NCBI GenBank assembly: GCA_965153355.1
Contig: OZ231126.1
Location: forward strand, 42,098,001-42,162,000
Reading direction: 5' to 3'
Length of the DNA stretch: 64,000 nucleotides
Source of the DNA: Flaccisagitta enflata
Taxonomy: Eukaryota
Position numbers and translations under genes: made by a program. The notes beneath the pieces are model-generated. The model did no database searches. It was not told where the DNA came from and saw only the letters and a list, made by a program, of their open reading frames with translations. The stretch's first letter is position 1, and each line of letters starts with the position of its first letter. Of the stretch, positions 6,966-39,542 are shown in pieces.

Positions 6966-8082
6966 AGTGCTGCAAAACCTACCAAGCATATGTCATTGGC
7001 CCCTTCAGGGCCACTGCCCCTCTCTCCATTACGCATTCACATACACTCACATAGGGGCAATGGGTACTGATGGCCATCCAACACTTTTGCTACTATTTTT
7101 TTGGCGTTTTTGAGCGTTTAGAACCCACTGCTCCTGCCCAAATGCCCAAGTGACCTCCTATATCAGTGCCCCTGCCCACCCACACAAGACTAGGGTAGCC
7201 GTGTATCCGACCTTGTTGAGTCAAAAACAGATCAACAAGTAACACTGGGTTACAATACTGTAGCAGATGGGTAGGCAGGGGCGTCCAACCTCCACATCCC
7301 ATGCCACCCTCCCTTAGACATAAGCCAAAAGCTTCTAAAGCACTGAAATTTTTATTTCTAGACTTTTTTCTAAGGACTCAGGGATTCATGGATAGACAAA
7401 GCTAATGGTGACTCAAGGTCATAAAGCTGTTGCAGCTCACATAATGGTCAAATGAATGGGGTGAGTGAGGATAAGTTGATTGATATGGTCAAGAAGGAAT
7501 TTTAGTAATTTTCTTTATTTTTGCGTGTTTTGACTGTACGAATAGTGATGTAATCAAGGGTATTTGATGATCTGAACCAAAATTTTTGTTTTCCATAAAA
7601 GTTCATCTATTAAAGAAGCTGTACCAGCTAGGATAACTGCTATAGGACTGGGGTAATTAAGATTAAGAAAAGATTTAAACAGCTAATATATGCGTTTTTT
7701 TGCAATTTTCGCGATTTTTGCGTCCTTAGCAAGCGATTTATCAGAGGGCACCCGTTGCACATTTTTCAAAAAAAGCATAAAACAACAATCATTTTGGTCC
7801 TAGAGGATGTCGATGGTCAGTTTAAGAAACCTCTTTTATACTTTCATGATAATGCATTCTGTCTGGGATGTCCTATATATAAGTGTTTTGTCCGCTCATA
7901 GACTGAAGGGGCAAGGCCAGGGATCAACTGACGGTTTTGCACGATAATCAAAATTCACTGATAAGTGAAAGCTTCATCGACCGACCGACCGATTGGGGCC
8001 GACTGCCGAGTGCAAAAACAATCAAGAGGCTCATCACCATACGAATATATATCTTCAATTGACCTTGTTGCGGAATCCATGT

Positions 8083-8326
8083 AGTAGTATAGCCAGGTGT
8101 CTTGTGAATCAGCAGCGGTCAGCGCTCAAATCGCAAATTTCAGCTCGGATCAGCAGTAAATACCCGGTACATGCTAGGGCAGCGGCCAGGAATCGCCTAG
8201 CAATCTATGTGGAATGAATGAAGATTAGTACTGAATATATATATTTACTATGTTATGATTTTTTTTGTTTAAATAAACATTTTTTGTGGCCTCCGGACAA
8301 TATTTATTTAGCGGTCAGCATTTATT
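8083..8326 (+). repeat. Left terminal inverted repeat (244 bp)
   Basis: agtagtatagccaggtgtc...gcggtcagcatttatt is the reverse complement of 43478-43721. No mismatch seen by eye, including homopolymer lengths. Confidence 0.97.
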
Positions 8327-9640: not shown

Positions 9641-11056
9641 ATGGCTGGAGAAAAAAGCAAAATTTATTCTGCAAAAACTCATCAATTTTTTCCGGGAAAT
9701 TTTGCGTGCGTTTTTGGTCAATCGTCTTCTGGTAGTTATTAGTCACAAAAAAATAATACTAGGTAATTTTTTTTTTAGATAAAAGTTAATAGGCATTAAG
9801 TGGAAATGTTTGGGATTTTGGGTGAATTTTTATTTGATTTGGAGCTTGATTAGGGGATACCAGTTACTTGAAAAATAATTGGATTTTTTACAAGTTTTTT
9901 TTTATTCTGAGCTTGAATAGGGGATACCTATTACTTAAAAATATGAGAAGGAAAAATTTAGAAGAAAAAAAATTTGATTTGAGGCTTGAATAGGGGATAC
10001 CATTTACATGAAAATTTGACAAGGTAAAAATTTAAAGAAAAAAAAATGATTTTAGGCTTGAATAGGGGATACCAGTTACTTGAAAAGATTGGATTTTTGG
10101 CAATTTTTTTTTTATTTGGGGTTTGAATAGGGGATACCAGTTACCTGAAAATTTGAAAATGCAGAATTTAGAAAGAAAAAAATTTATTTGGGGCTTGAAT
10201 AGGTGATACTGGTTACCTGAAAAGATTGGATTTTTGGCAAGTTTTTTCTTTTATTTGAGGTTTGAATAGGGGATACCAGTTACATGAAAATTTGAAAAGA
10301 TAAAATTTAGAAAAAAAAATTCAATTGAGGCTTGAATAGGGGATACCAATTACTTGAAAATTTGAATGTTGTGAGTGTATATTTTTTTGTGACCAAGTTA
10401 ACAAAACAAGGCAAAACGACATTCATTACCAATTTGGTGATTGAACATAAGTACCATTTTCGACAAAAAATTAAGAAGGTCGTGTATTTTTACAAAGAGA
10501 GTTGTGAAAGCATAGATCGGCTAAAGTCGCACCTGTCAAAGGAGCCCGGTGTGGAGGCGGTGTTTTCGAAAAAATTCCCCGATGGAAACTTTTTGGATTT
10601 TTGCAAGCCAGAGCAAGATGCGACAATTTTGGTGATAGACGACTTTTTTTTGATGCTACCACTGATGAAAAGATAAGAAAGGATTTGATTTCTTGCTCGA
10701 CTATCTGGACTCATCATTACGGTATTTCGAGTTTTCTGTGTCTACACAGCTACGACATATTTTTAAAGGCATCGAAACTGAATGTAATACTTATGAACTC
10801 AAGTCATCTCGTGTTTTTCAAGAGTTCACACGACGCGCGTGCCGCCAAGCGGCACATGAACCAGTACATGTTAAATTTGAAGGGGGGACAGACCCTCTTC
10901 GATGTCTACAAGCGTCACGTTCTCGAGAAAAATTTTAACTACGTCATAGCAGCTATTTCGCCTATGTGCACAAAGCCTACCTTGTGGGGACAGATTTTAT
11001 TGGCGGAGAATTTGCCGATGTTAGGGTTCCATGAGAGTAGCGACGAGGACGAGTGA
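9641..11056 (+). CDS. A32/FtsK-like genome-packaging ATPase; exons 9641-9731 and 10411-11056; apparent frameshift in the T8 run at 10644-10651
   Basis: Splicing GTAGTT(9732)...AAG(10410) creates Walker A CVFGQSSS|GKTTF. Walker B is ILVIDD. Downstream HHYGISSFLCLH and NSSHLVFFKSSHD match the Maverick ATPase pattern HHxNxS...NxxYLVLFKNPRD. About 245 aa if one T is added. Confidence 0.88.
9841..10365. repeat. Array of 8 copies of a ~30-bp core (g[c/t]ttgaataggggataccagttacttgaaaa) at ~65-72-bp spacing inside the ATPase intron
   Basis: Cores near 9841, 9909, 9981, 10053, 10118, 10191, 10257 and 10328. The spacers fall into two related AT-rich types. Confidence 0.9.
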
Positions 11057-12559: not shown

Positions 12560-13735
12560 ATGCGAATTGAGTCAAGGAAAGTGTTGAAAAGGGCCGTTAG
12601 TGGAAAGGGCTCTCCGTTATTCCTGTCTAAAAATGCTTACGAAATCGGAAAATATTTAAAGAGGAAAGGATTTGATGTGGAGCAGAGTGAAATACGGGAG
12701 TACCTAGCAGAGCAAAAAAGCAGTGACATAGTAATAAAAAACAACAGCGAGAAAAAAATAAGTGAAGTGTCTCGACCAGTAATTCTCCCTCCCAACTACT
12801 TTGAATGGTTGAACGTTGATTTGTGTTATTTGAGCAGAGATCGTGGCTATGGAAGCTCAAGTACTAGATACATTTTGGTCCTAATGTGCGGATTATCATT
12901 GTACACGTACTATGCGCCTTGTTCTGGGACTCGGAGTTCATTTGTTATAAAGAGTTTTCAGAGTATTTTCGACAGGTCCCCGTTTGTCCCAGAGCGATCA
13001 AAGAAGGTGTGGGGGGATTTAGGAATTGAATGGAGGTCGGTTGAAATTTCTCAATTTTTCAAAAAAAATGGCCTAAAATTCTACGGCATTCTTCCACGTC
13101 GGCTTGAGCGGAAGGGGCGTGGCAATGTATACGCCGAGCAAAGCATAAAACTTTTAAGACAATTTTTAGAGTCGTATCAAAGGGACGTTGGGAATGATGT
13201 GCCCTTTGCCCAAAAACTGTTGGAAATCGAAACAGCGGTTAATTCAAAGCCAAGGTCGAGTTTGAATGGAATGTCAAGCCGAGATGCTCTAAATGAAGAC
13301 CCACTTCATATACGGAATATAAAGGCGAGTAACCGCTTTCGGCGACGGAAAAGTTTGAGAAAGAATGTGATTAGCCCAGCAAAGTTACCCTTGTTTGCAA
13401 TTGTGCGTGTAAGAAAATTTGCAAAAAAAGATGGCCTAGGTGCAAAGGAGTCTCATGGGTCAATTTCAAGGAACTACTACTGCGTTATAGACGTTGAAAA
13501 TTATGACCATGTGGATTACCATTTGCTGGCAAGCGTGTTTAACTTGAAAAAAGTGAGTGATTCTAAGTTTAGTTATGCAGAATTGAAATTCTACCCCGAA
13601 ATGACTGTACCCAAAGCCCGATATTACAATGTTTTGAACAATTCTGAAATTGTTAAGCGTGACAATAATTATGTATATATGAAGCCCGATTATTGTGATG
13701 AAACGTTTTACGCTGCTAAAGATGCTTTGAAATAA
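12560..13735 (+). CDS. Retroviral-like DDE integrase (Maverick c-integrase), intronless
   Basis: WLNVDLCYL...YILVLMCGLSLYTY (D1), VWGDLGIEW (D2) and VYAEQSIKLLR (E, 39 residues between D2 and E). VNSKPRSSLNGMS matches YNxxxHSSIGMxP, and AIVRVRK matches GDxVRI. Confidence 0.9.
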   Translation: MRIESRKVLKRAVSGKGSPLFLSKNAYEIGKYLKRKGFDVEQSEIREYLAEQKSSDIVIKNNSEKKISEVSRPVILPPNYFEWLNVDLCYLSRDRGYGSSSTRYILVLMCGLSLYTYYAPCSGTRSSFVIKSFQSIFDRSPFVPERSKKVWGDLGIEWRSVEISQFFKKNGLKFYGILPRRLERKGRGNVYAEQSIKLLRQFLESYQRDVGNDVPFAQKLLEIETAVNSKPRSSLNGMSSRDALNEDPLHIRNIKASNRFRRRKSLRKNVISPAKLPLFAIVRVRKFAKKDGLGAKESHGSISRNYYCVIDVENYDHVDYHLLASVFNLKKVSDSKFSYAELKFYPEMTVPKARYYNVLNNSEIVKRDNNYVYMKPDYCDETFYAAKDALK

Positions 13736-13821: not shown

Positions 13822-14307
13822 ATGCTGATAAACGCGGTACCTCTTTGGAATTCAAGTTTGGTCGATTTGGTTGTACCAAATGGAACTGTTGGCGATTGGA
13901 TAAACAAGACGGATTGGAGTGATGATTTCTCGGCGAATGGTGTGGCAAATTGGACGACTACACAGTCATACGGTGGTAGTGACGGCTACGACGGTGTAGG
14001 TGGTGGTGACAGCGGAAGTAGTGGTTTTTGGTGGGAGCAGGAAGGCGGAGGTGAAGATCCTCCAGTCGTGAAGTTTGGGCCGGATATTGGCCTATTGCAA
14101 GCCGTTGGTGTTTACGTGAACTTTTTGTTGTTTGCGGCTGCGTTGGTGTTGGTGGTGGCGGTCGTGTGTAGGTGTGTGACGGCGAAGGTCCGGCTTAGTT
14201 TGAATCGTCGAAGTGGTCCCGAGATTGCATTCCAGTTTGGTGCCGACAGACGACGCGGTGACGAGAATGGAGACCGTGCAGGAGATCCAAATCGACTCGC
14301 GATCTAA
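13822..14307 (+). CDS. Small single-pass membrane glycoprotein
   Basis: Four N-X-S/T sequons (NSS, NGT, NKT, NWT), a hydrophobic stretch VGVYVNFLLFAAALVLVVAVV, then CRC and basic KVRLSLNRR. Confidence 0.7.
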   Translation: MLINAVPLWNSSLVDLVVPNGTVGDWINKTDWSDDFSANGVANWTTTQSYGGSDGYDGVGGGDSGSSGFWWEQEGGGEDPPVVKFGPDIGLLQAVGVYVNFLLFAAALVLVVAVVCRCVTAKVRLSLNRRSGPEIAFQFGADRRRGDENGDRAGDPNRLAI

Positions 14308-15136
14308 CGGGTGTTATCTGAAAGAAACGAGTGGTTTTCATATGAATCTCCCTGGATTATATCCTGATTCTGGAGGTAAAAAGGACTTGTATGTGAATGT
14401 GACTGATTTTAGACTCCCGACTATCGAAAAGAGGCTTACTTTTTCAATGTATTATGGTTTTGATACGACTGAAATACAGGTGGAATCTGTAAAGGAGTAC
14501 AGTTTTGTGTTTAGTAGTTTTAATGAATTTGCTCAGCAATTGAGATGTGCCGTTTTTAATGATTTTTTGTACAAGAGTAAATGTGTTAGAAATAAAGAAG
14601 ACGAGCCGGAGAGTCGTGATAAAGGAAGGAAAGATGAAGTAGAGACTGTATTTTCGTTGCGTTTTGTAGATGGTGCATTTGAACTAATGTTGGATGAGTA
14701 TTGTGTACTTTTTGCCTCTGTTAACTTGTTTGAATTTATGGGATTTAAAGCGGAAGTATCTGATGGTAAAAGTGGAAAGAATGGAGACAAGGTTTTGGTA
14801 CCCAGCAGTGGTGCTGATACGATGAAAATATGCAAACGTTTGACCTGTGGTACTCCAGTGCACTTTTTAAATGAATCGGATAGGGTGTGTCATTTAGTAA
14901 TTGACAGATGCGTAGAACCTGCTGTATATTTCAATGGTGGTAGATATGGAGTTGTATGTAGTTATGATTTGATGGAGCGGAAGCTTATGTCAAATTATAA
15001 GCGTTTTAGTTACGCTGGAATGCGCAGTATTAGCTTTTCTGTGTTAAATAATGATTTTAAGGCTTTTGATTTTGGCTGTTGTTTAAAGTCTCAGTCTTTG
15101 AGGTTTGTATTGAATATTGTTAAAAAAATTGATTAG
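14267..15136 (+). CDS. Minor capsid protein (penton, single jelly-roll; PX-like), intronless
   Basis: The N-terminus IQIDSRSN...SGFHMNLP...LYVNVTDFRLP and C-terminus VCHLVIDRCVEP...NYKRF...RSISFSVLNNDFKAFDF...LRFVLNIVK follow the Maverick penton pattern (xTLPSNSS...NFxxxLP...WEVALxEIxYP; YVYxDIVEP...YVPV...TIEIxIxDxxG...VxLHFRR). Confidence 0.8.
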   Translation: METVQEIQIDSRSNGCYLKETSGFHMNLPGLYPDSGGKKDLYVNVTDFRLPTIEKRLTFSMYYGFDTTEIQVESVKEYSFVFSSFNEFAQQLRCAVFNDFLYKSKCVRNKEDEPESRDKGRKDEVETVFSLRFVDGAFELMLDEYCVLFASVNLFEFMGFKAEVSDGKSGKNGDKVLVPSSGADTMKICKRLTCGTPVHFLNESDRVCHLVIDRCVEPAVYFNGGRYGVVCSYDLMERKLMSNYKRFSYAGMRSISFSVLNNDFKAFDFGCCLKSQSLRFVLNIVKKID

Positions 15137-15185: not shown

Positions 15186-15627
15186 ATGGCAATTTCTACT
15201 GATGCGCTACAAGCCATTGCTGTTAAAATGCGTGGAAATTTGCAAGAGGGAATAAAGTCGACTACAACAGAAACTAGTGATGCTTTGGAGACTTATAGGG
15301 AAGATATGAAAACTATGGAGAAAAATGAAAAGAAAGAAAGAAAAAAAAAACCCAGTCGGTGGAGTGAAAAAAAAGGATTTGAAGAAACCGAAAAAAAAGG
15401 AAACTGTGAAAAAAAAGGCAGCAAAGAAGGGAACTATGGCAAAGAAGTCTGGTTCGAAAGCTGGGAGTAAACGGAAGAAGAAAACTAAGAAAGAGAAGTC
15501 GACAAAGAAGATGAAGGTGGATGAGGTGTCTGACGCTTCAAGTAGCAGCTCTGATTCGTCGTCAAGCTCTTCGTCTTCTAGTTCTAGTAGTGAGAGCGGG
15601 TCCAGTGACAGTAGTGACTCCGAGTAA
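15186..15627 (+). CDS. Lys-rich, Ser-tailed basic protein (H1-tail/core-protein-like); apparent frameshift in the A10 run at 15341-15350
   Basis: ORFs 15117-15470 and 15325-15627 join into one frame if one A is removed. It contains KKPKKKETVKKKAAKKG and a poly-Ser/acidic tail. The ATG sits immediately after a ttcag acceptor. Confidence 0.6.
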
Positions 15628-15749
15628 AATTTGTTGTGATTGATGTAAAAATGACAATGTATTGATTAAGTTTGTTAGTCGTGTTATTTGTGAATGTATA
15701 TAAATATTGTATATACTATATATGCAGGTTTACCCACCAATAAAAGAGA

Positions 15750-17120
15750 ATGTTTGCCGGTTTGCCTACCACTCACGTGCACGCGTCAATGTGCAAAAAA
15801 AATTTCTGGTTTTGTATTCTGTTGGAGGCGTGGGCAAGGGGGAAATACCCCGGGAAGGAGTATGTTCTTCAGATGATCGACGAAGTGGAGCAATTCATCA
15901 ACGGGCTGAACAACAATTGCATAGAACATTACAGGCTGATATGTGTACCGCTGAAGGACGGCGCCGATGGCAAGGAAGGCGAGGATCGCAAAAAGCCACC
16001 GAGAATCGCATTGGATGATTACGGTGGTGCCGTGTGGAGATACGAGAAGACAGACTCTGAAAACTCACTTGCGCTGACACGTGGTCCACTATCGTCATTG
16101 GAGGACCCGAATGCATCCGGTGTTGCGGCGCCCGAGGGGACGTCGTACTCATTGACGAAGATGGCGGCCTACGTGAAGGGGGTGATGGCGGTTGGTTCGA
16201 AGGTGTACAGTGAGTGCGTCCGTGTTGCGGGTAGGAAGAGGAGGATTGACAAGGAGTGGGAGTTGAAGTCGGCGGAGTTTGAAGTAGAGGGCCAGGTGAT
16301 GAACGCGAGCGACGAGCCCGAAAGGTTCAAACGGAGGAGGATTGATCAGCAGTGGCATGGGCGCATGGATGAATGGCAGCGCGAAAAGCGGCAATGCCAG
16401 AGGCTTTTTGAGAAGTGGAGGTCGGTGAAGGCCTGTGGTAGTGGTGCGATTGGCGGTGTAGGCAACATCGACAACGGCGACGACGACGATGTCGACGATG
16501 ATGGCGACGTTGTCGGCGATGTCAGTGACAACAATAACGACGCCATCGACGTCGATGATGAAGATGTCGACGACAACGACGACGGTGTCAATGACGCCGA
16601 CGTGGGTGACGTGGATGTCGACGATGGCGTCAACGACGCCGGTGGTGAAGATGGCAACGACGGCGTCAACGGCGCCGACGTCAGTGGCGACAATGACGAC
16701 GACGGCGTTAACGGTGCCAGTGGCGACGATGGCAATGACGCTGTCGATGGCGTTGACGCCGGTGGTGAGAATCGCGACAAAGAATACGGTGAAAGATTAA
16801 TGGAGAAGGCGCTGGCATATGTCAACGATGGCAATGAGGTATGGGTGGCGATGTCGGCGGAAACATGGGAGATGGCGATGAATCTGGTGGTCCCTAGCAA
16901 CGTCGACAACGTCGGTGGCGATGGTGGTGGCGTTAACAACGACAACGCCGACGCTGGTGGTGAAAATGTCTACGTCTACAACCGCGACGTTGACAACGAC
17001 AATGCCGATGCTGGTGGTGAAAATGTTTACGATGGCAACCGCGACGTAGACAACGACAACGCCGATGTTGGTGGTGAAAATGTCTACGTCTACACCCGCG
17101 AAGATTTGTTGCGGGAGTGA
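15750..17120 (+). CDS. Hypothetical protein with long Asp/Asn/Gly-rich repeats
   Basis: 456-aa open frame with a globular N-terminal part, NLS-like RKRR/KRRR, and acidic repeats (DNDNADAGGENVYxxNR x3). Confidence 0.7.
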   Translation: MFAGLPTTHVHASMCKKNFWFCILLEAWARGKYPGKEYVLQMIDEVEQFINGLNNNCIEHYRLICVPLKDGADGKEGEDRKKPPRIALDDYGGAVWRYEKTDSENSLALTRGPLSSLEDPNASGVAAPEGTSYSLTKMAAYVKGVMAVGSKVYSECVRVAGRKRRIDKEWELKSAEFEVEGQVMNASDEPERFKRRRIDQQWHGRMDEWQREKRQCQRLFEKWRSVKACGSGAIGGVGNIDNGDDDDVDDDGDVVGDVSDNNNDAIDVDDEDVDDNDDGVNDADVGDVDVDDGVNDAGGEDGNDGVNGADVSGDNDDDGVNGASGDDGNDAVDGVDAGGENRDKEYGERLMEKALAYVNDGNEVWVAMSAETWEMAMNLVVPSNVDNVGGDGGGVNNDNADAGGENVYVYNRDVDNDNADAGGENVYDGNRDVDNDNADVGGENVYVYTREDLLRE

Positions 17121-17505
17121 TAAAATGAATGGGAGAAAGCATGTAACAATTGATTTTGATTGAGTAATTATAAACTTTGCATTTGTACAGCCGAAATGGT
17201 TAAAAATTGGTGGCTTATCTTCTCAGGTCAGAAGGTTCAACTAATTTAAACCCCTCGTTCAGACATGAGTAGAGCCTCATTGATTTTGATTTTATACTTT
17301 TTGTGTATTGGATTGTATTGACTAATTACCGTTATGGTTTATGGTTTCAAATGTTACGCTTACAAATGTGGTGTTAAAAATGTCTATTTTTAATATGCAA
17401 ATATCATTAGATTGACGAGAAATTGTGTGGAAATTGACATTGGTTATTAACGTTACTGCATTAAACACTGTGGACTGTATTTTTGGAAAGAGAACGCGGT
17501 GGAAA

Positions 17506-18591: not shown

Positions 18592-19188
18592 ATGGCTGGA
18601 CTGAAAGACGCAGATGATGGATTTGCCGTCAACAATCTGGACGCAGACGACTTTGGTGGCACTCAAGACGCCGATGCGCCACTGTCATGTGGGACATTGC
18701 CAATTGACGACGACGTTGGTGCGGATGTCGACGACGCCGGAATGACTAGCGACACCGACGACAGTGGAGCGTGTGGCGATGAGAAGGATATGCGTAATTT
18801 GACGAACGCGCAGTTGCAGTATGTGCCCTTGGAGGATAGAGTTGCGTGGTTGGAGAACGAGGTGGTGGTGATGAGGAGCGATGTGGAAAAAATGAAGTCG
18901 CGCATGGCCGACTTGATTGAAGTCACGAATGGGATGACGGCCCAGCCTGGAAATGAAGGGAGATCTGTGGTTACTGCGGCTGCTTTTGAGAAGATGGTGG
19001 ACGGTGCCTTGAAATCTGGGATGAAGTATGGGGTTAGTCGCAGTTACATCACACGTTTCGTTTGCGCAGAATTTGGGCAAATCAATAATCGTTATCTACA
19101 GAAGAAACTCGGCTTGCTTCTGAAGAAAAAGTTAACGACCAAGGAATATGTGTTAAACGATGCGCTGTACAGCATTAATGAGAAGTGA
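18592..19188 (+). CDS. Acidic N-terminus, coiled coil and C-terminal linker-histone H1/H5-like winged-helix domain
   Basis: FEKMVDGALKSGMKYGVSRSYITRFVCAEF...LQKKLGLLLKKKL...LYSI parallels the H15 pattern YxEMIxxAIxxLKERxGSSRxAIxKYIxxxY...IKxALKxLV...SFKL. Heptads in LEDRVAWLENEVVVMRSDVEKMKSRMADL. Confidence 0.65.
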   Translation: MAGLKDADDGFAVNNLDADDFGGTQDADAPLSCGTLPIDDDVGADVDDAGMTSDTDDSGACGDEKDMRNLTNAQLQYVPLEDRVAWLENEVVVMRSDVEKMKSRMADLIEVTNGMTAQPGNEGRSVVTAAAFEKMVDGALKSGMKYGVSRSYITRFVCAEFGQINNRYLQKKLGLLLKKKLTTKEYVLNDALYSINEK

Positions 19189-19310: not shown

Positions 19311-22163
<2,853 letters not shown>

Positions 22164-22319: not shown

Positions 22320-22688
22320 ATGGCAAAAGTTAAACGGGACGCAAAGGGACGATATGTTTCCTGTGTAAAAAAACATTTGCGTGGGGTACGGAAGCGAGGG
22401 AGGAGGCGACGGAAGAAAGGGAAGAGGAGGCGGAGGCGGAGGAGGAGGGGTGGAAAGCGAACAAGAGGAAGAACGCGGAGAAAGCGACGAAATAAATACT
22501 CACTGCCTAGACCATCGGTCGTTGCAAAACACGGGTGTGTGATCTCAAATGGAGTGACAGTTACAGTGACACGAAAACGACAAAGTGGTGATTAAAATTA
22601 CATGTGTTCCAGGTTGGATAATTTGACGGACGATGAGGTGGCGTACCTCAGGCGTAAGGCGAATCGTGCATTCGAATCTCACATATGA
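22320..22688 (+). CDS. Arg-rich protamine-like core protein; probable exons 22320-22534 and 22613-22688
   Basis: RKRGRRRRKKGKRRRRRRRRGGKRTRGRTRRKRR. A phase-2 intron GTGTGT...TTCCAG joins to an open exon LDNLTDDEVAYLRRKANRAFESHI*; the unspliced ORF ends at 22595. Confidence 0.7.
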
Positions 22689-23002: not shown

Positions 23003-26000
23003 ATGACATTTTCTCAAGGAGAGATAAACGCTATTATGCGTGATGAAAACGATATGAACACTGTGCTGTCTCGTGACTACTGTTCCACGATTCACCCAAC
23101 GTTAAGAAACAATTACCACAACGTAAAGAGTGCCCTTGTTTTCGCCCCTGGGAGATACACTTCAGAATTTGCAGTGAGAATTGCAAATCTGAGACCGGCA
23201 GAATTTGCCTTACGAAAGGACTTTTGGCCATCCAATTTTGAAACACACACAAACTTTCTCCGACTCGTGAAATCAATATTAATAACGCAGTTTGCCAATA
23301 CGAGAACATGTGTGGATATAAACTTCAGTATCTCACTGATAATTCTGGACGACGAGGACCCGTTTAATCCAGCTGGGACGTTCCTTTGGTCTAGTAGAAG
23401 TAACAATTCGTGCTTGGATCAGGCCTTCTTGATAGAAAGCCTGACCAGTCTAAACTACTTTGTTGACAACGTCGTGTCTCAGTTCTCAGTGGAAAACTAT
23501 TTACTAAAAAGCCTCGAAAGTCTAGAAAATAAGTATAATGGAGTCATTGTGCCCATAACGACTAATTTTTATATCACACTCAATACGGCAACAGTGTTTG
23601 GGGCCTCGGAAAGATGTGTAACAAGGTCTCTGAGTGACAATAACTGTGCTAACTCTGGAAAGTGTGACAAGGGGAACAATTGTGTGTGGCGGGCCCTTAG
23701 TGCGTTGATGACTTTGGACAAAGAACAATGGCCGGTACTCAGAAATAGTGCTAGAAAACGGACCAACCAAAAAATTGCAAGGAGGTTAAAGGCGCGATTC
23801 CTACAGTGGTATCGACACAACTATGGAAATGATAACTTTGTTGACCCAGTGAGTAGCCTAGGGTATGACTCTCGACTTCTACACGTGTTGGAAAAGTTCC
23901 TTGGAGTGGGGATAGTACTGGTGGAGCAAGTTAAACTGATAAAAAAAAAGGTCAGTTTTTATGGACTAGTTGACACTACGAAGGTGGCAAGATGCCTAAA
24001 AGTAAAATTTGCATCTAGAAAGAGATGCCCAAATACTATATTTTTGGCCTCTGATGGTCAATGTCACATACGCTCAGTGACAAATCTGCCTACTTTTGCA
24101 TACAAATACGTATGTAAAACATGCTCAAAGAGCTACAGATATGACCACGAGTTAAAGAAGCACAGGTGCAAAGATGTGAAATTTAGAGGGAGTGTAGTGC
24201 ACAAGTGGAATTGTTCGCTTTCAGTTGCTATTGAAAGGGCATTTGGCATGGAAAATGTGTTAAAAAGTGACACAAAATTTATGCATGTACTGATAAACGG
24301 GCTGGAAAGCGGAGGTGATGTTTCTGTAACGATGTGTTTTTCGTTACTAGGGGGTGATTACATGACCAAAACTGTGTCTGTCCCGGATTTGCGCTGTGCG
24401 TCGCAAGTAGTGACAACTAACTGCACAAAGGCGGCTTTGTTGGTGTTGGGTGAGAGATTGAAAAACAATTATTCGTTGTTGAAAAGGGTTGAAAACGATT
24501 ATCAGTCAGTGAGTATCAAATCTGACCCAGTGAAGGTTGAAAATTTGATAAAAGTTAAAAAGGGGCTTGTGGCCTTTCTGTCATCGTTTGCGTGCTACAT
24601 ACAAGTGGGGTGTAACGCCAATTTGACGACTAATGATGTAATGCACTCGTTTTTGGCAACGTTAAGCGACAACTACGATTGTGGTTCATTTGGCGTGAGA
24701 TTTGGAAAAAATGTGATACAAGGATTGGCAGTAAAAGGTAGCCCTGTGAAGTATGTGTCTCTAGCCGAATTTTCAACACAGTTTCGTGAATCTGAGGCCA
24801 GATACAGTCATGTAACAGAATGGGCCAACACGATTGAGAAATTTGAACAACATTTTGGACTGAATATAACAGGATTGAGTTTGGGCCAAATGGGCCATGA
24901 GTTGCTGGCAAACTGTTTGACAAATGTTGAACAAAGGATGTTTTTAACATCGCCTGTCGCCTTTCAGAAAAAAACTTATGATGTGAATGTACGATATGGC
25001 CTTCTATGTTCTGAGGGACCCAGTGTACTTACTCCAGAAACTGACTTTAAATCAGTGGCATCTTTAGACTTTTCACGTTTTTATTTTCATATTTTATGTA
25101 ACCCAGAAGAGAAAATAAGCGTCGGTTTGCCCATTCACTACAAGCAGGATGAAAGAGACAAAGTGTTTGTTGCGGAAAGAAATAGAAGGCGGAAAACGGT
25201 CGCTAATGTTTTCTTAAAGGTAATTGAAGTAGTTCTAGACACAACGGTGGTTTCTATGCACAACTCTCGTGAGGTGCGGTTTGATGGCAGGCCTGTAGAT
25301 GGCTATTTTTCACTCGGAGATGATGCGTTCATAGTCGAGATACAGGGCTGCGCAATTCACGGGTTAAAAAGTGGTGATAGTGATGACGATGATGACATGA
25401 GCATGCACAATGGAATATGTCACTTACCAAAAAACGTGATAGACGCGGAACATCCCGGACACATGCAGTCGTGTGACGTGTGTATTGCAAATAGTTCCGG
25501 AGAGTACAGCTATGTGCGGCCCAAGCTGTGGCGTCTGCGTGCACACGAAACAGTCGATTCAGTGCACTTTTACGACAAAAAACGAACCTATGGCGACATT
25601 TATGAATCAACGAGACAAAAGATCAAGAGCATTAAAGATGCAGGCTTTAAAGTTATTGATGTATGGGAATGTGACATCCTGAAGTTTTGGACCCGTCCTG
25701 TAGAGGATTTTTTTGCACGATGGAAACTATTAGTGAATGAGGCGTACAAGAATGTGCCCCTGGGGAAACTTATGGCAGAAATTTGCACACAAACGTTCCC
25801 GCTTTCTCTGCATCCCTACTTAACCGAAAGTCAAGTTCTGAAATATATAAAAGATGGCACGTTAAATGGTTATGCAACAGTGTCCTGTAAATTTGGGCCT
25901 ATGTCTCAAGCATTGCTAGGGAATGTTAAGCCATTTTTCATGAGAGGCAAAAATGGCGATGCCTACCAGACATTTGATATAGACGAGAAGTGCATCCCTG

Positions 26001-26908
26001 TGTCCCTTTTGAGTGAATTACTGAACAATGCCTCCTTTAAAGATTTTCAAGTGACTAGGGTTTATGATTTTTTTGAGTATGCTATTGCTAGAAAAAATCC
26101 CTTTGCACGACTCATGGGACCCGTGTTGGGCGCGTTGAACACAGACGGTAGTTCTTTGTTTTCAAAAGTATTGAAAATAAGCCTAAATGGTCAAATTGGC
26201 TGCTGGAATTATAATCCATTACGGCATAAAAAAAGTTTGCTGATAAATGAGACCGACATTGCCCACTTAAATTCAAGAGCAAACTTGAGTCACTGTACGC
26301 GTGTGAATGAGGATAAAGTTTTGATGCACGTAAAAAATGACAATCCCGTCTCCAATTTGTCACATCTTCACCTCAATATTTTGGGAATTGGAGTTGCTCA
26401 GATGCTACGGCTTATTACCGGGATGATAAACTATTATGGGTGTGCAGTAAGTAGAATAAATACCGATGGAGTTATTGTGAAATTCGAGGAGCAGCATCCA
26501 TTGAAATCTTTGTGTGAATTAAAAAAATATTCACTCATTTTTGACTCCTTTTTGGTGCGAACTGACTCTGGTGTTCAATTTCTAAAAAACTATCTAGACT
26601 GGAAAAAATGCTATTTTAAGCATTTGGGAGTTTGCCCCTCACATGAACAATTCTACCTAGAATGCTTGGCAAGCCAGAATGTGTCATTTTCTCCCAGTGA
26701 TTGTTGTAAAAGCTACATTAACACAAGTGCAAAGTATCCTTTATTGGTCGAATTTGTTGGAAACATTGGTATCTTTAAGTCAATTAATAGTCTGATACTC
26801 GCTAATACGATGGATAAATGCGTGTTTGTGAAAGGTTCTGGTTTAAGGCATTTGTCTATTGACGATCTTACTAACAAAAGTGTCGAAGATTTAACATTGT
26901 TGTTGTAA
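23003..26908 (+). CDS. Protein-primed family B DNA polymerase (pPolB) with Zn finger and Vsr-like nuclease insertion; divergent motifs; intronless
   Basis: 1301 aa. Motif A SLDFSRFY, motif B KISLNGQIG, motif C INTDG and C-terminal VKGSG. Zn finger CKTCSKSY...HRC. The insertion VDGY...VEIQGCAIHG...YESTRQKIKSIKDAGFKVIDVWECD is typical of group-2 Polinton polymerases. Confidence 0.9.
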   Translation: MTFSQGEINAIMRDENDMNTVLSRDYCSTIHPTLRNNYHNVKSALVFAPGRYTSEFAVRIANLRPAEFALRKDFWPSNFETHTNFLRLVKSILITQFANTRTCVDINFSISLIILDDEDPFNPAGTFLWSSRSNNSCLDQAFLIESLTSLNYFVDNVVSQFSVENYLLKSLESLENKYNGVIVPITTNFYITLNTATVFGASERCVTRSLSDNNCANSGKCDKGNNCVWRALSALMTLDKEQWPVLRNSARKRTNQKIARRLKARFLQWYRHNYGNDNFVDPVSSLGYDSRLLHVLEKFLGVGIVLVEQVKLIKKKVSFYGLVDTTKVARCLKVKFASRKRCPNTIFLASDGQCHIRSVTNLPTFAYKYVCKTCSKSYRYDHELKKHRCKDVKFRGSVVHKWNCSLSVAIERAFGMENVLKSDTKFMHVLINGLESGGDVSVTMCFSLLGGDYMTKTVSVPDLRCASQVVTTNCTKAALLVLGERLKNNYSLLKRVENDYQSVSIKSDPVKVENLIKVKKGLVAFLSSFACYIQVGCNANLTTNDVMHSFLATLSDNYDCGSFGVRFGKNVIQGLAVKGSPVKYVSLAEFSTQFRESEARYSHVTEWANTIEKFEQHFGLNITGLSLGQMGHELLANCLTNVEQRMFLTSPVAFQKKTYDVNVRYGLLCSEGPSVLTPETDFKSVASLDFSRFYFHILCNPEEKISVGLPIHYKQDERDKVFVAERNRRRKTVANVFLKVIEVVLDTTVVSMHNSREVRFDGRPVDGYFSLGDDAFIVEIQGCAIHGLKSGDSDDDDDMSMHNGICHLPKNVIDAEHPGHMQSCDVCIANSSGEYSYVRPKLWRLRAHETVDSVHFYDKKRTYGDIYESTRQKIKSIKDAGFKVIDVWECDILKFWTRPVEDFFARWKLLVNEAYKNVPLGKLMAEICTQTFPLSLHPYLTESQVLKYIKDGTLNGYATVSCKFGPMSQALLGNVKPFFMRGKNGDAYQTFDIDEKCIPVSLLSELLNNASFKDFQVTRVYDFFEYAIARKNPFARLMGPVLGALNTDGSSLFSKVLKISLNGQIGCWNYNPLRHKKSLLINETDIAHLNSRANLSHCTRVNEDKVLMHVKNDNPVSNLSHLHLNILGIGVAQMLRLITGMINYYGCAVSRINTDGVIVKFEEQHPLKSLCELKKYSLIFDSFLVRTDSGVQFLKNYLDWKKCYFKHLGVCPSHEQFYLECLASQNVSFSPSDCCKSYINTSAKYPLLVEFVGNIGIFKSINSLILANTMDKCVFVKGSGLRHLSIDDLTNKSVEDLTLLL

Positions 26909-27381: not shown

Positions 27382-27690
27382 TCACTCACTTTCTTCTTCA
27401 TCGTCAGATGGAACGTCCACGAGGATTTGTCGACGCCGTCTCTTCTCTTTATTCTTGGCCTTTTTCTCCCTGGAATAGGCCATCGTGTTGAAAAAGGGAG
27501 GGACGACGGGTTGGATGGAATCCGGTTCGGGCAAATCGGGAAACGTCTCCAGCGAGCCAAAAAGCGTGATGTAGAGCACAAGAATCGCCATCCCTTGAAG
27601 GTAGATAAGTGGTAACACATTTAGTAAGAAACGCACGAGAGTACCAACGCGTATGTACAAAAATATATGAGTGAGCGAATGTGTGTATGA

Positions 27691-27775
<85 letters not shown>

Positions 27776-28086
27776 TGGGTGTGTGTATGGGTGAGTGCGT
27801 GTGTATGTGTGTGTGTGTGTGAGTGTATGTGTGTGTAAGTGTGTATGTGCAAGTGCGTGTGTGTGTGTGTGTGTGTGTGTGAGTGTGTGTAAGTGTGTAT
27901 GTGAGCGTGTGTGTGAGTGTGTGTCTGTGTGCGTGAGTGTGTGTGTGTGAGTGAGTGTGTGTGTGAGTGTGTGTGTGAGTGAGTTTGTGTGTGAGTGTGT
28001 GTGCGAGTGAGTGTGTGTAAATGGATGTGTGTGAATGAGTATGTGTGTATGTGTGTGAGTGTGAGTAAGAGTGTGGGTGTGTGCGT

Positions 28087-28149
<63 letters not shown>

Positions 28150-31100
28150 CGTGAGTGTGAGTATGTGTGTGAGTGTGAACGTGAGTGTGTGTGTGTATGT
28201 GTGTGTGTGTATGTGTGCGAGTGAGTATGTGCGAGTGAGTGTGTGTGAGTGAGTGTATGTGTGTGTGTGTGTGAGTGTGAGTGTGAGTGTGAATGAGAGT
28301 GTATGTATGAGTATGTGCAAGCATGAATATGAATGTGCATGTATGAGCGTGTGCGTGTGTGTAAGCATGAATATGAGTGTGTATATGTGAGTGTGCGCGT
28401 GTGTGTAAGTGTGAATATGAGTGTATGTGTGTGGGTGTGTGAGTATGTGAAGCAAATTACCCGTTATGGTGCTTGGGGGGCCATTGACAAACACTTGACT
28501 TCTTTGATCGGGAGACCGCCAGAATTCGTCCTCCTCTGATATAGATTAGACATTAATTTACATTAAAAAAGGTCGGATACATGGCTACCATAGTTGCGTG
28601 TGAGTGGGTGGGGTTGTATTTGGGGTAATTTATTGATTTGGATAGGAGTAAGACTGATCATGGCAAAAGCCAAAAAAAAATGTGACATATGGATGGACGG
28701 ACGGATCAATACACGGCGTGCGAATGAGAATTCTTACCCGTTATGTTGTACTGGCGGCGCAACGAGTTTTTCTCGTTGTCGTCGAGGTCTTCCCATCTTT
28801 GCTCCGGCTTTAAAATTGGACATTGAATCCTGATTACGTACAGGCGATTCAGAAGACATTCCAACTCACTGGGTGAATTTGGCGCAAACTCGGAGATGTC
28901 GCAGTTAGACGAAACGACCACTGGCATATCTACGAGGAAGAGTGAACAATGGATAGTACGTGGATAAATAAAGAGAAACATGACAACAGACAGCGGCATG
29001 TGAAATGCTACATGTAAAAAGATGGTGAACTGAGAGTGGGAATTTACCGTGTTTGATGGCTCTTGATTCCGCGTGCTTGACGTTAATCGATCCGCGAATT
29101 CCCTCTAGAAATGGAAGAATAAATGACATATGAGTTGCCATGTATGCACTGTTTTTTGTGTGACACACTTGGTAATAACCAATGAATGTATATTTTCAGT
29201 GTGTGCAAAATGTTAATGTGTCTATGTCATGGAACAATAAAACTGAACAGTTATAATTTGTTTATTGATGCGTTGAAATAAACATACCAAAAAGTAGTTT
29301 GAGGTCGGCTTGGCGGAGGCCACACGATGGCTCAAGCTCGTCGGTGTAAACAACGTCTAAAAATAGAGAGAAAATTAAAAATACGGTTTGTTAAAAGACG
29401 ATAATTACTTCCTAATTATGCGAAAGTGAGGAGATTGGGTGAAGGAATGTGGTTGGGCAGGGACAGTGATGCAAAACCCTTTCAAATTTTGAGATTATTG
29501 TGAGATGTGTGGTAAGATCATTGTAGCAACTATACTGCATATAGGCAGAAATGTCAAAGTTGGTAGTTATCATATGTAGCTTACCAGTGGTAAAATAGAC
29601 GTTGTTCAAGTAAAACGCCGACGAGCTGAGGTTTAGTAAGGACGACTGCAGAGGTTGTACCAAAAGTGAGACAAAAAGGGTCTTCCCCTGTGTATAGATA
29701 ATAGATAGCAGATGGTTATACACATAAGTGGTACACAAATTGACAAACGAGAGTGTTGAGCTAACAAACAAGGCCAAGTAGATCAATAGGCGCGACGGTG
29801 TGGATTGTGAAATGAATGCTTTGCCAACAGACCAGTAGACCGACCAGCCAACCAACGGACACAACCAGTTATAGAGGTGCTTTGTCGCACCTGAAAGGGT
29901 GACATACATAACCATGCACTTGTACTTACCGTGTTAGAAGGTCCGCACAGAAAGAAACCGCAACGCTTCTGCGTCTTTGTGTCGCGCTCTTTGTCTTTTT
30001 TGGCCTGCTCGGCGCGACTGGCTTCAAACTCCCTCTTGTTTTTCAGGGCCATCAGTTGGGATAGAAGGTCGAAACCAGTTGACGATGTGGCGTGATCACC
30101 GGTGGCGAGTGGCGCAGTGACGTGACCGTTGGCGCCATTTGGCGCAGTGGCGTGACCATTGGCGCCATTTGGTGCGGCGGCGTGACCATTGGCGCCAGTC
30201 GGTGCAGTGGCGTGACCATTGGCGCCTTTGCCGCCTTTGCCTTTGCCTTTATTCTCTTTGGTTGGCACGGGGACAGGGTCCGGGGCAGGGGCGGCGGCCA
30301 GATTAGGATCTTGGGCGTCATCGTCGTTGAGGTATTGAGGATCTATTGGCGCCGAGTTTGTCTTGACCTCCTTTTTGTTGAGCGAGTGAGTGAACAAGTC
30401 GTTAACAAGTGCCAGGGTAGGTCGTGGCACAAGCGCGTTGCATACGAAGAAATCGTGCAGCTGGCAAAAAAAAAAAAAGAGAATGAATTGATAAGATATC
30501 ATTGTTGATCTAAAGAATAGACACCCCCCCCCCATCCATATTCATGTTATGTATGGGCATATGTCTGCTATAAATGTGTATTTTGGTGAGAAATGCATAC
30601 CCATTCAGCTTGACGATCGTAGATGTTGGGGGTTCTCTGGTATTCGCCGAAAAATTGGAGGATTTGTGTGTCCGTTGCACCCAGGTCTTTCGCCTTTTGG
30701 ATCATCTTATTCCAATTTTCTTCATCTTCGTTGTTCATTGCGGTGTATTCGTCGAGTTCGGCTTTGTAGCTGAATTAAGGGAAGTTTATTTGAAATGTAA
30801 GAATTAGCTGCAATTGGGCAAATGATTGGAAAGCCATGCCTCCGCCCCCCCCCCCCCCCATCTTATCAACTTACAATTCTGCTAGGCGAAGAATGTAGGA
30901 CTTTTTTCTTTTCCTTGACTGCTTGTCTTGGTTGAAGGTCTTGAACATTTCGCGTTGCAGCGCCTCACTGAGGTATTTAGAATGAAAACACATGAAAAAA
31001 AAATATGGTAATATTGAATATAAGCAACATGGGTAATTGGGTAGTGGCAGTAAAGCAAATGTAGATGAAACTCACCTTGATCCTTTCAAGAGCACTGCCA

Positions 31101-31856
31101 AGTTCACGTGCATTTCGAGTGATAGTTGTTGCGTCCACTCTTCAAACGAGGACGGGTCGAGCTTCTTCATAATCTATGAGGAAATGGGCAGTGATTATTG
31201 GAGTGGCTTAAAGCAAATGGGAGTGGTTAAAAATGACAAAGTGAAATAAACTGAATTAAAAATAAATTGGAATGGGTGAGTTTAGTTTAGAATGGCCCAA
31301 AATAACACAATGACTTGGAATGGGCAAATTTGGATTAGAATGATTAATTTAGGACCATTTAAATTGGCGCAGAATATGTTATATGTCGCACCTCGAGTAG
31401 TAGTGTTCTGTGGTTGTAGTCCGTCGTCATGGACTCATTCATTTCTGATTTCGCGACTCCTGAATAAATTGGAAGAAATAAAAAAGAAACCAGTTTAAAT
31501 GATGCATATGGAAAAAAAAAGAAACCGGGATAAGGGGGGGGGGTTAATATGCATAATTTGGTTAGTTGATTTACCGAAAAAATCTAGTTCTTTGGGAGCG
31601 GCAATTTCTGGGTTAGAGAACTGCAGCGTTGGTTTTCCTTTGCTGCCTTTTCCCAAAATCGCGGGTGGCAGATCCAAGTTGAACGTTGGCTTCTGTGGCT
31701 TGAGGAAGGTCTGGAAACACGATTCTTCGTCTATACCCTCGGCAGGCGATGTAGCAACCTATATGGAATGGGGAGGGGGTAAAATGCAATTTTGTATTTG
31801 TATTTTACTTTTTTATTGATTTTCTTGCTCTCACTCTCACTCTCACTCTCACTTTT

Positions 31857-31933
<77 letters not shown>

Positions 31934-32016
31934 TCTCTCTTTATTTTTGTTTTTCGCTCTCACTCTCTCGCTCTCACTCTCACGCTCTCACTCTCACACT
32001 CTCACTCTCACTCTCA

Positions 32017-32049
<33 letters not shown>

Positions 32050-32250
32050 ACTCTCTCACTCTCACTCTCACACTCTCACTCTCACACTCTCACTCTCACA
32101 CTCACTCTCACACTCACTCTCACTCTCACACTCACTCTCTCACTCTCACTCTCACACTCACTCTCACACTCACTCTCACACTCACTCTCACACTCACTCT
32201 CACATTCACACACTCTCACTCTCACTCTCGCTCTCGCTCTCGCTCTCGCT

Positions 32251-32285
<35 letters not shown>

Positions 32286-34130
32286 TCTTGCTTTCTCTCG
32301 CTTTCTCACCCTCTTGCTCCCCACTTTCTCATTGTCACCTTTTCTCTGTATTTTTAGCTTTTTTTTTTTTGTACGGCGAAAGCCGCCTTTACTAACCTGC
32401 TGTATGAATTCAAGAAGAGGCGGGCCGCAGCGTGCACTACCCCTTTTTGGTACGGCGTTGTCGATGTCAACGCAAAAACGCATCCGTTCCAAATGAATGT
32501 CGCCCGTGGATTGACAGCATCTTGACTGTAAATAAAGATGCATCCACGTTTAAACTTTATATAACGAGTACAGCAACAACAAAATTGAACACATGATTCA
32601 AGTAGAACAGTATTATACTTTGAAATTCTATAGGACGAATCACAAACCTCATAATCTACTGGAGAAACAAGTGCCGTAGCAACTTGTAAAAGCGACGCGT
32701 TATTTGCGGTGATAAGTCCAGATCTTCTTAGGATCGCATCTCGCGTCGGTATCATGCCCGCGTCCAGCTCGGATTTCTGCTTCACATTGGCGATACGTTT
32801 CACGAAGTTCGTTAAATCATCATTCCATTTGTGGCCTGAAAATGAAAATGATTATGAAAATGAAAAGGTTCAAACAACACCCTCAGGCACTAAAGCACTC
32901 CAAATGGAAATACAGTTGTAAATATGCACGATTAAGTAAACAAACCTTGACTGACGAACCAAATGCAGTGAAAATGCTCCTTATCTTCGTCGTGCAAGCC
33001 AACCATGTCGTACCTACAACAGATACGCGTGTATGACATAAAATTAGAATGAACGAGTAAATATGGCCAACCGACCGACGGACCGACATAGTGGGTGCAG
33101 AGCCGCTTATCACATGACTAGAAATTGGCTAAAAATTGACTAAAAATGACCAATCGATCGACACAGTGGATGTAGAGTCGCTTATTATATGACTAAAAAT
33201 TGCAATACATAAATATAAGAACAATGATTTACCTGAAGTGATGTGTATACCAGGAACGTTCAGATGGCCTTTTTTCCAGGAATTTGGTTTTGAACTCATC
33301 AGTCGTTAGTGTAGGCGCGAGAATTCTGAGGTCCCTATGAAAGTAGAGTGAAATAAATGAAATAGGGGAAAGATATAAATGGGTCGAAACAGTCATAAGT
33401 GAATTAAAATGAGTTTATATGTTTTTAACTGGAATAACATGGACACAAGCAATATCAACACTGTTTAGGATCACCTGTTGAATATGATGCAGTGGACGAA
33501 ATTTGGCGCCTTCGTTCCCTCGGCTTTGTGCTCCTCGCGCCTTTTAGCTATGAGTCCTTGGCGATGTTCCCACCCAGGAATGGGGGGAGGAGCGTTTGGG
33601 GGGATGGGTAGGTCATCTGGTAGAGGAATGGGGATGTCATCCGGAGAGTTGGGCCCGGAAGTTGGACCGAGAGGTTGGACTTGTAAGGCGGATTCGGACT
33701 CGGATGTGGCAGCGTTTACGTCGCCTTCTTCTCTTTCCATCTGAAGTGGCACTACGGCGGCACACGGCAGTACGGCAGTGATATTGCCTTTCGGAGTCGG
33801 TGGGTTGTCGACGAATTCACCGTCGTCGTCCGAAGCCACTGTGTTTGACGCGACGCTGCTACCACTTGGAGAGGCCGACCGACATTCTGAACGCGGCGAC
33901 GAAGGCGGTGGCGATACCAGCGATACCAGCGGTGGTGACGGGTCATCGACGTGAGTCGGGCCGATGACGTCATCGGCATCGCTCTCTGATTCGTCCGTCT
34001 CAGAATCAGTTTCGACATGCTCTGCCGATTTGTATTCTCGCTTTGGTTTGTGTCTTTTGAGTTTATTTTGCTTTTTTTTGCTCATAGGAGAGTTTTCATT
34101 ACCAGACATGTGTCTCTTTTTACCATTCAT
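27382..34130 (-). CDS. NS1/Rep-like protein: HUH-like motif plus SF3 helicase, 17 exons: 34130-33475, 33334-33233, 33013-32946, 32835-32648, 32525-32397, 31758-31575, 31459-31392, 31173-31076, 30967-30875, 30769-30601, 30460-29930, 29687-29585, 29356-29288, 29104-29048, 28929-28738, 28535-28461, 27593-27382 (~997 aa)
   Basis: All introns are GT-AG and phase-consistent (2994-nt CDS). Walker [14 protein letters not shown], Walker B VVYTDEL, B' [15 protein letters not shown], motif C MPVVVSSN and Arg finger CLLNRLYVI. Upstream [14 protein letters not shown]. The last acceptor (27594) is the least certain. Confidence 0.85.
27665..28450. repeat. Degenerate (TG/TGAG)n microsatellite filling the last intron of the helicase gene
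   Basis: Direct reading. It explains the THTH ORFs. Similar tracts lie in MCP introns 1 and 5 ((GA)n at ~19575-19894 and ~20770-20957) and in helicase intron 5 (~31828-32290). Confidence 0.9.
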
Positions 34131-38482: not shown

Positions 38483-39542
38483 CTTAACAGTAGACAAATC
38501 ATATTAACACCACAATTTGTATTTAGTGTGAATTGCTGCCCCTTCGCTAGCATTACTGCCCTTCCACCTTCTACAACTACCTAATGGTCATGTAACAGTC
38601 CTCGTCCTTCAGTCGGGGTATTTTAATGAGATTTAAAATCAATTTTTTATCGAATGTGATGCCCTTCCGACCAACCAACAGACATAGTCAACTCACAGAG
38701 ATGATGATGTAACACATAAAATTACCTTGGTAATTCATGGGACCAATTTTGCAATACTGAATTGAGATAATGACACATCAGTGTCAAGTGGCGATGTTTT
38801 TTATTAAACGCTAATAAACGATTCATTTTTGACTTTTTGATTTTCAATTTTTGAATAAAATCAGAATAAAACCACGGAATTTAAAAGCGTAAGTTGTGCG
38901 ACTTGAATGAGGGACAATTGTCATTGTGCTCAGCTTATAAATGAATTTTTCTATAAGAGATAGGAAGAGCAATTCTCTTTTTTAATTTTTTTCAAAGCAG
39001 ACGGCTCTTTATTTCTTTACGTATCACATTAAGAATAAAACACGTATCTTTCCAACAATGAAATCGCGCGGGCAAAAAGTTGACATCGTGCCAATTTTCA
39101 AGGCGGAGCTTGGATATGCAGGTGTTGACCTTTAGTGCATTTATTATCTCTCTGTACCTTCTGTACTTTCTATTGTCTAACTAATGTTGTCTTCATGTTC
39201 TGTATCTCTGCGTATACAACGAGGGCAATTATGACATAGTATGCAGCTTATTGTATGCGAAAATCTTGTTCGTCGCACCATATTTGTACTTTTGTTTTCA
39301 ATGCCAGTTGTTTCTATTTCTGCCAACAGAGGCGCTTTAACCGACAATGAAAACAAAAGTACACACCATGTAACACGATGTACCGAGGGTAGTACAGTAC
39401 AATACAATACTCTTAAATATGCTAGGTATTCTTTTGAGAAGTATAGTCAGTCCATCTTTTAAAAAAAAGATGGACCTTTCTTGATGAGGGACGGTCCGGG
39501 TCTGAGATGCAATGACGAAATCGCCACTGATCATCCGATCGA

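Follow-up and report, generated by a model that had tools for sequence, protein, structure and literature searches.

Shared host repeats point to copying of an intron-rich Polinton from integrated copies in Flaccisagitta enflata

Introduction

Do Polintons (Mavericks) multiply from the copies that sit in chromosomes, or do they only re-enter genomes as viruses from outside? This open question is raised by a stretch of 64,000 nt of the genome of Flaccisagitta enflata (the window, meaning the whole of the DNA that was analysed), which holds a Polinton of 35,639 bp at 8083-43721 with predicted introns in its genes and diverged repeats of the host inside some of these introns. The claims of an earlier, sequence-only reading of the window were followed up here against the host assembly (794 Mb, 9 contigs). 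The explanation that we prefer, to which we assign a probability of about 0.8, is that the insertion in the window is young and belongs to an old, intron-rich Polinton lineage in the host nucleus, which is copied DNA-to-DNA from integrated copies.

Polintons are recognized by terminal inverted repeats (TIRs) with AG-rich ends, a target-site duplication (TSD) of 5 to 8 bp, an rve-type integrase, a protein-primed DNA polymerase (PolB), a double jelly-roll major capsid protein and an FtsK-like packaging ATPase. An adenovirus-like maturation protease is typical of them, but it is not universal.

Results

Ends and copies of the element

The two TIR arms, at 8083-8326 on the forward strand (starting with AGTAGT) and at 43478-43721 on the reverse strand, matched at 244 of 244 positions without a gap, the likeness ending at position 245, and the element runs from AGTAGT to ACTACT. 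Comparison of the flanks identified a TSD of 5 bp, CATGT, at 8078-8082 and 43722-43726 on the forward strand; the sixth flanking base was not equal on both sides, which ruled out a 6-bp duplication. The arms without mismatch and the duplicated CATGT had been pointed out by the sequence-only reading, and both observations were confirmed. The absence of differences in 244 positions sets the divergence between arms at 1.2% or less; as the bound is only 1.2%, "recent" is used for this insertion in a relative sense, without a date. The TIR length is within the range of 100-1500 bp given in the available passages of PMC10748475.

The TSD is within the 5- to 8-bp range, and the TIRs and TSD, together with the capsid, integrase and polymerase likenesses described below, identify the element as a Polinton/Maverick. 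It departs from the usual size of 13-25 kb and from the usual uninterrupted core genes: at least 31 introns are predicted in it, and of the six copies that keep both TIRs four have a length of 34.7-35.6 kb, while two carry large private inserts. Direct searches were blank: Pfam gave no match above the cut-off for any tested open reading frame (ORF) or exon of the window, and no match was obtained in PDB sequence searches with the element proteins, in longer-protein searches for relatives of the element, or in a capsid-exon search of viral_contigs and the JGI metagenomes.

The family of the window element (family 1) was found at eight other loci, named B to I, all of them partial in the assembly (D stops at an assembly gap). 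B and G, on contigs C3 and C4, share their 5-bp flank, and so do E and F, located 290 kb apart on opposite strands; these pairs look like split halves generated by ectopic recombination or misassembly, and once each is merged at least seven separate family-1 insertions remain. Three further families, with 66-76% DNA identity, were present in the genome, from which 11 copies or fragments were fetched. The copies of the four families have distinct flanks at the TIR edge, and all six copies with both TIRs showed a 5-bp TSD, though for one copy, where it falls in an ACA repeat, the call is ambiguous. The arms of a family-3 copy are likewise identical (266/266). Across the left coding block, 6/4490 substitutions separate the window copy from D, 17/4491 from E and 56/4495 from B. 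In family 2, the capsid-PolB block is flanked by an internal inverted repeat of 206 bp.

The sequence-only reading had named, as the finding that would overturn its proposal, intronic insertions unique to this locus in a fixed, single-copy element, that is, domestication. A locus that had become fixed in the host and had acquired its introns as host genes do would account for the host-gene-like intron density and splice signals of the element and for purifying selection on its exons. With at least seven family-1 insertions, the 11 copies or fragments of three other families at distinct flanks, identical TIRs in two copies and intronic repeats that are shared, as described next, domestication is refuted, and we leave it hardly any probability.

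Aged host repeats are shared by sister copies

Two dispersed host repeats lie inside predicted introns of a 17-exon gene, here called R1, in agreement with the claim that the introns carry diverged host HINE-like copies. The first, of 132 bp and with HINE anatomy, is at 29765-29896 in R1 intron 11 (29688-29929); the second, HINE-like and older, is at 28565-28716 (possibly to 28731) and makes up most of R1 intron 15 (28536-28737). A genome search with 29768-29895 gave 1011 first-look candidates, 40 of which were scored, with non-element matches of 84-89%, and a search with 28568-28720 gave 275, 40 of them scored, with non-element matches of 71-80%. With the limits refined, the 29765-29896 repeat was 88-89% identical to nine host copies, 98.5% to copy B and 93.8% to copy C; for the 28565-28716 repeat the values were 77-80% to nine host copies, 95.4% to B and 99.3% to C. 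The intronic repeats are thus 11-12% and 20-23% diverged from the host copies. Since the host copies of the 29765-29896 repeat are mutually 97.8% alike (median of 36 pairs), the copy in the element is the aged one. R1 intron 11 has 123-126 nt and no repeat in family 2 and 242 nt with the repeat in family 1, implying that the repeat entered a pre-existing intron. Eight host copies show subterminal inverted repeats, a terminal hairpin, a GGTY microsatellite and T-rich ends, features that match the HINE anatomy described in the passages at hand of PMC4067079. A weaker third piece, a decayed host-repeat remnant at 33065-33127 in R1 intron 2, also occurs in copies B, C and G.

The only sisters that span both intronic repeats, B and C, hold them at the same place, with 94-99% identity, in a different chromosome and between different flanks. 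This is the result that the sequence-only reading had proposed to look for, namely shared intronic repeats at different loci, and the repeats and introns common to sister copies bear out its view that the intron-bearing form is the replicating form. Its claim of a recent transposition with older insertions aboard held for the older repeats, which are shared, while "recent" keeps only the relative meaning given above. Contigs of the marine metagenome run X3 also join both repeats to element DNA, at about 97.6% identity.

The repeats could instead have entered single copies and reached the sisters by recombination or gene conversion, without transposition of a carrier. Signs of exchange do exist: a 236-aa segment (window 15744-16451 and 17098-17355) reaches 92% identity in the comparison of families 1 and 2, against about 65% in its surroundings, copy B is a mosaic whose identity to the window copy is 98-99% in the left part and 91-95% in the right part, and the matching duplications of B/G and E/F suggest that these loci were rearranged by ectopic recombination or were misassembled. 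Against this route, all the spanning sisters hold the repeats and none of them has an empty intron, the four families do so with different repeats, and the sister repeats are about as diverged as the adjacent element DNA and far less than they are from the host copies. We consider it unlikely that recombination accounts for the sharing as a whole.

Families 2-4 carry host pieces of their own that are common to sisters. Counting the three of the window, 19 shared host pieces were identified, none of which falls under a coding match (1/19 if the family-2 insertion described below is counted), whereas 4/9 private extras of at least 200 bp interrupt ORFs (Fisher p 0.006, or 0.026 with the family-2 insertion as coding); two microsatellite rows and one family-2 row, for which the sister lacks the region, were left out of this count. 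Likewise, a 202-kb host library placed no dispersed host repeat over any predicted exon of the element, its sole coding match being low-complexity and Asp-rich. The exons are under purifying selection when the best-aligned sisters are compared, with ratios of nonsynonymous to synonymous substitution rates (dN/dS) of 0.04 for the integrase (against B), 0.14-0.21 for PolB (against B and C), 0.22 for the capsid (three sisters) and 0.28 for R1 (against B). The idea of introns as safe havens therefore needs to be reworded: repeats do collect there, by a filter of purifying selection on exons and not by targeting.

The long microsatellites of the element, at 19572-19895, 20770-20953, 27680-28424 and 31828-32287, have no coding overlap, and capsid introns 1 and 5 hold AG/GA microsatellites. 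Short in-frame tandem repeats were found within non-core exons in 8 of the 14 arrays checked. Microsatellites occur at the same sites in the sisters with lengths such as 77, 147, 166 and 324 nt, and since the length varies at one site, we take them for slippage products grown in place. The sequence-only reading was correct in placing the long microsatellites outside core exons; as host insertions they were rejected on account of these lengths.

Introns conserved across four families

At least 31 GT-AG introns, 6,823 bp in total, were predicted in the window element, of which 59% is coding. The capsid gene has eight, the packaging ATPase gene one and R1 16, and the integrase, PolB and penton-like ORFs have none. 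With random donor phases, stop-free chains arose in 2/5000 trials for the capsid and 0/5000 for R1. The spliced aligner used for the copies recognizes only GT-AG introns and is unreliable at capsid positions 160-220 and in low-complexity stretches of R1, and its calls in variable regions were left out of the counts of shared and gained introns. Capsid introns 1, 2, 6 and 8 and R1 introns 1, 2, 4, 5, 9 and 12 have the same position and phase in the four families, and the ATPase intron, of 679 nt and splitting the Walker A motif, does so in 9/9 copies of the four families. Family 2 has 10 of the 16 R1 introns in common with family 1, families 3 and 4 eight each, and every family also has private introns; R1 intron 11 splits Walker A in families 1 and 2, and in families 3 and 4 this motif is whole in one exon. 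We infer that the capsid, ATPase and R1 transcripts would be spliced by the host spliceosome.

A general origin of the family-specific introns from transposable elements was rejected, as no duplication was found at the GT-AG intron junctions examined. R1 intron 15 is exclusive to family 1, and its HINE-like repeat leaves about 40-50 nt of intron, when no other intron is shorter than 82 nt; intron 15 may have been born from a HINE. The ATPase intron contains a tandem array of 72/137-bp units at 9911-10365, and its acceptor is AAG in three of the four families.

A host transposon in the family-2 capsid gene

Both family-2 copies, on different chromosomes (L051:958-1254 on C7, and L101 on C1), carry in capsid exon 1 a host miniature inverted-repeat transposable element (MITE) of 330 bp with an 8-bp duplication. 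The claim that no host insertion lies in a core exon was therefore valid in the window but not in family 2. The MITE family is young and abundant, with 4863 genome candidates and scored host copies that are 95-99% identical. The end of the MITE provides a GC donor and the target provides a YAG acceptor directly past the 8-bp duplication, and the predicted GC-AG splicing would restore the capsid codon count of families 1 and 3. None of 12 host MITE copies has YAG at the acceptor place, and at donor position 3 none has the base seen in family 2. Judged from these sites, the insertion looks like a GC-AG intron born from a transposable element and afterwards copied; the competing view is that the MITE sits in a dead capsid gene and was copied passively. 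In an introner family many copies each form an intron; here 0/12 host copies did, in a small sample, and the MITE fits a single transposon-born intron and not an introner family.

Gene content

On the forward strand, the putative packaging-ATPase gene (9641-11056, with exons at 9641-9731 and 10411-11056) was recognized by motifs, a Walker A that spans the intron and a Walker B-like motif, kept in the four families and without a Pfam match. A conserved programmed frameshift in this gene was considered and rejected, as 7/9 copies are in frame. The intronless 391-aa ORF of the rve-type integrase (12560-13735) had Atlas values of 0.95-0.96 to PF00665 clusters, with 10/10 best family matches in agreement and a blank direct Pfam scan. 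It is followed by a conserved single-exon ORF (14258-15136) with 57-67% identity in families 2-4 and no Pfam match, which, to judge from the gene order, may be the minor capsid (penton) protein, and by a Lys-rich ORF (15187-15627), open for 94 aa here and for 146 aa in copies B and C.

The major capsid protein gene (19311-22163, forward strand) has nine exons, eight GT-AG introns and no internal stops. With X placed at each junction, the predicted protein aligned over residues 1-502 to P0044, an uninterrupted metagenome protein of 513 aa (E 2e-43), and exons 2 and 5-9 fell in order on a profile of uninterrupted relatives. The P0044 model (pLDDT 81) was similar in Foldseek to the iridovirus, Sputnik, mavirus and PBCV-1 capsids (E about 1e-15); on the evidence of this modelled relative, the element capsid is a double jelly-roll protein. 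Pfam gave no match above the cut-off for the capsid relatives. Three metagenome relatives are uninterrupted (508-513 aa), and many of P0020-P0081 are C-terminal pieces of 200-350 aa that resemble the last exons of intron-bearing genes.

The putative protein-primed PolB gene (23003-26908, forward strand, no intron, 1301 aa) had an Atlas value of 0.95 to a cluster that is 96% PF03175, with divergent motifs and a blank direct Pfam scan; by its motif, it presumably contains a VSR-like insert.

R1 (27382-34130, reverse strand) comprises 17 exons and 16 GT-AG introns with compatible phases throughout, no stops and about 997 aa. An HUH-like motif is in exon 3 and motifs like those of superfamily 3 (SF3) helicases are in exons 11-15; the EHFH and GPSNTGK[ST] motifs are kept in the four families, and the catalytic tyrosine was not located. 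The family-3 Walker A exon scored below threshold against PF00910 (19.2 bits, E 0.0018, cut-off 21.5), and the PDB and protein searches with R1 gave no match; a staggered exon alignment for the helicase profile was misaligned and was not used. The motifs suggest an NS1/Rep-like protein (HUH nuclease plus SF3 helicase), unusual beside a PolB and an integrase, and we offer it as a lead. A candidate protease at 32354-33340 was discarded, as the stretch consists of R1 exons.

The remaining genes are on the reverse strand: a large gene at 34500-38756, with at least four introns and a Cys/His-rich C-terminus, read as a stop-free five-exon chain conserved in families 2-4 with its start exon not located; a small ORF at 39543-39905, with hydrophobic N-terminal and internal stretches and no Pfam match; and a three-exon gene at 40543-41529, with a predicted membrane segment, whose intron 2 is common to the four families. 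The ORF at 18592-19188, blank in Pfam, has a C-terminus that we presume to resemble a linker-histone globular domain, and this ORF and the Arg-rich one at 22320-22592 possibly encode DNA-condensing proteins.

Two strong hairpins (42798-43143, fold z -16.7) near the right end belong to a non-coding hairpin region (42544-43143) that might be an origin or a structured RNA. This region is kept at 73% in family 2, at a different position, and Rfam gave nothing at the gathering score, only sub-threshold miRNA-like matches. Outside the element, the window contains a host 80-bp tandem array at 53746-54588 (10.5 copies, 99% matches).

Discussion

In the explanation that we prefer, host elements would land anywhere in a chromosomal copy of the Polinton; copies hit in an exon would leave no offspring, and those hit in an intron or a spacer would be copied again. 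Copying by the element polymerase followed by integration by the element integrase, as expected from what is known of the family, would involve no RNA step, so introns and their contents would not be stripped. Introns would thus act as a filter in which host repeats gather and age, and an occasional exon insertion could survive by being spliced out, becoming an added intron.

Several results weigh against this explanation. The window alone offers only three intronic pieces (p about 0.07) and the host library amounts to just 0.2-0.3 Mb. HINEs favour T-rich targets, according to the passages at hand of PMC4067079, a preference that would by itself favour introns and may add to the filter, and mosaic copies indicate that intronic repeats can travel by recombination as well. 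The search for an empty site gave none, the right flank being unique in the assembly and the lone metagenome match being due to chance. R1 gave dN/dS values of 0.73 and 0.79 against C and G, which reflect decay or some misalignment, and for the penton-like ORF they were 1.2 and 0.74, on 4-6 changes. In the polyA RNA run of the same study, of which about 6% was read, there was one read and no splice joint, evidence in neither direction. No protease was found with two motif patterns in six frames, where short exons could hide one. The ATPase frame is broken near 10645 in the window and copy D only (2/9 copies), and the shortened Lys-rich ORF after 15187 is a second frame break of the window copy, neither of the two being mentioned in the sequence-only reading. 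This copy may not be self-sufficient, or may contain homopolymer assembly errors.

The ATPase break would be in keeping with a rival view, in which the intron-bearing copies are defective and depend on an intronless helper that moves them in trans, their capsid and ATPase genes being out of use. The truncation or disruption of most sisters, the existence of uninterrupted capsid relatives in metagenomes and the lack of a transcript among the reads are also in line with a helper. The capsid gene speaks otherwise, with a dN/dS of 0.22 against three sisters and a frame open across eight introns; every family recovered by the DNA search has introns (no protein-level search for a distant helper was made), and the intronless capsid relatives are only about 24% identical. 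We regard a helper as improbable, somewhat more so than spread by recombination. Copying of intron-bearing integrated copies remains our preferred explanation, and a bolder extension of it is offered only tentatively, as something we hold to be rather less probable than its opposite: a particle-forming Polinton with a packaging limit of about 35 kb and a spliced parvovirus/CRESS-like HUH-SF3 gene, which gains introns from host transposons (MITE, HINE) and moves repeats and introns between genomes.

The presence of aged host repeats in several later insertions indicates that, in this lineage at least, integrated copies are the templates for new ones. The conserved introns of the capsid and ATPase genes would link late-gene expression to the host spliceosome, and the family-2 capsid intron, if it is one, offers a dated example of how an intron arises from a transposable element, in which one genome holds the donor family together with copies that have the insertion and relatives that lack it. 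Elements of this kind would escape pipelines based on ORFs, as the blank Pfam scans of the tested ORFs illustrate.

The element shares with the Polintons/Mavericks of animals, as far as the passages at hand of PMC8097293 and PMC10748475 describe them, the AGTAGT ends, a short TSD, the rve integrase, the protein-primed PolB, a putative packaging ATPase and the double jelly-roll capsid (for ranges and context, see also PMC8502044, PMC11071296, PMC12220804 and PMC12130899, likewise available in part). It differs in its size, about 35 kb versus 13-25 kb (PMC8097293, PMC10748475), in its TSD of 5 bp versus 6 bp in vertebrate Polintons (PMC8097293), in the predicted capsid and ATPase introns, in the HUH/SF3-helicase-like gene and in that no protease was found. 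According to the same passages, intact vertebrate Mavericks are intronless (PMC8097293), and nematode Mavericks have intronless core genes and introns only in cargo (bioRxiv 10.1101/2022.07.12.499685; PMC10748475). In the literature, mostly open texts whose supplements may list intron-bearing Mavericks, we found no animal Polinton with conserved spliceosomal capsid introns, and in mostly open texts without supplements no host repeats shared between Polinton copies.

With HINE/DINE-1, non-autonomous Helentrons, the 132-bp repeat was compared in end anatomy only (PMC4067079, in part). Bidnaviruses, in the available passages of PMC4061559 and PMC11071296, likewise combine a Polinton-type PolB with a parvovirus-type SF3 helicase, but they have small single-stranded DNA genomes, parvovirus capsids and no integrase, and the likeness of R1 to their helicase consists of motifs and a sub-threshold Pfam score. 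In the introner-bearing polinton-like elements of dinoflagellates, host intron-forming transposons are found within full-length integrated elements and about 90% of the cases fit introner insertion after integration (PMC11957031, PMC12166617); the passages at hand do not show later copying of the carrier, whereas the element described here has old, conserved introns and its later copies have host pieces in common. Finally, mirusviruses also possess spliceosomal introns, enriched in virion-assembly genes and at variable capsid positions, which the available part of PMC12768974 reads as a sign of nuclear replication. They are unrelated, far larger viruses of protists with unknown intron donors, whereas in F. 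enflata the donor repeat resides in the same genome as the element.
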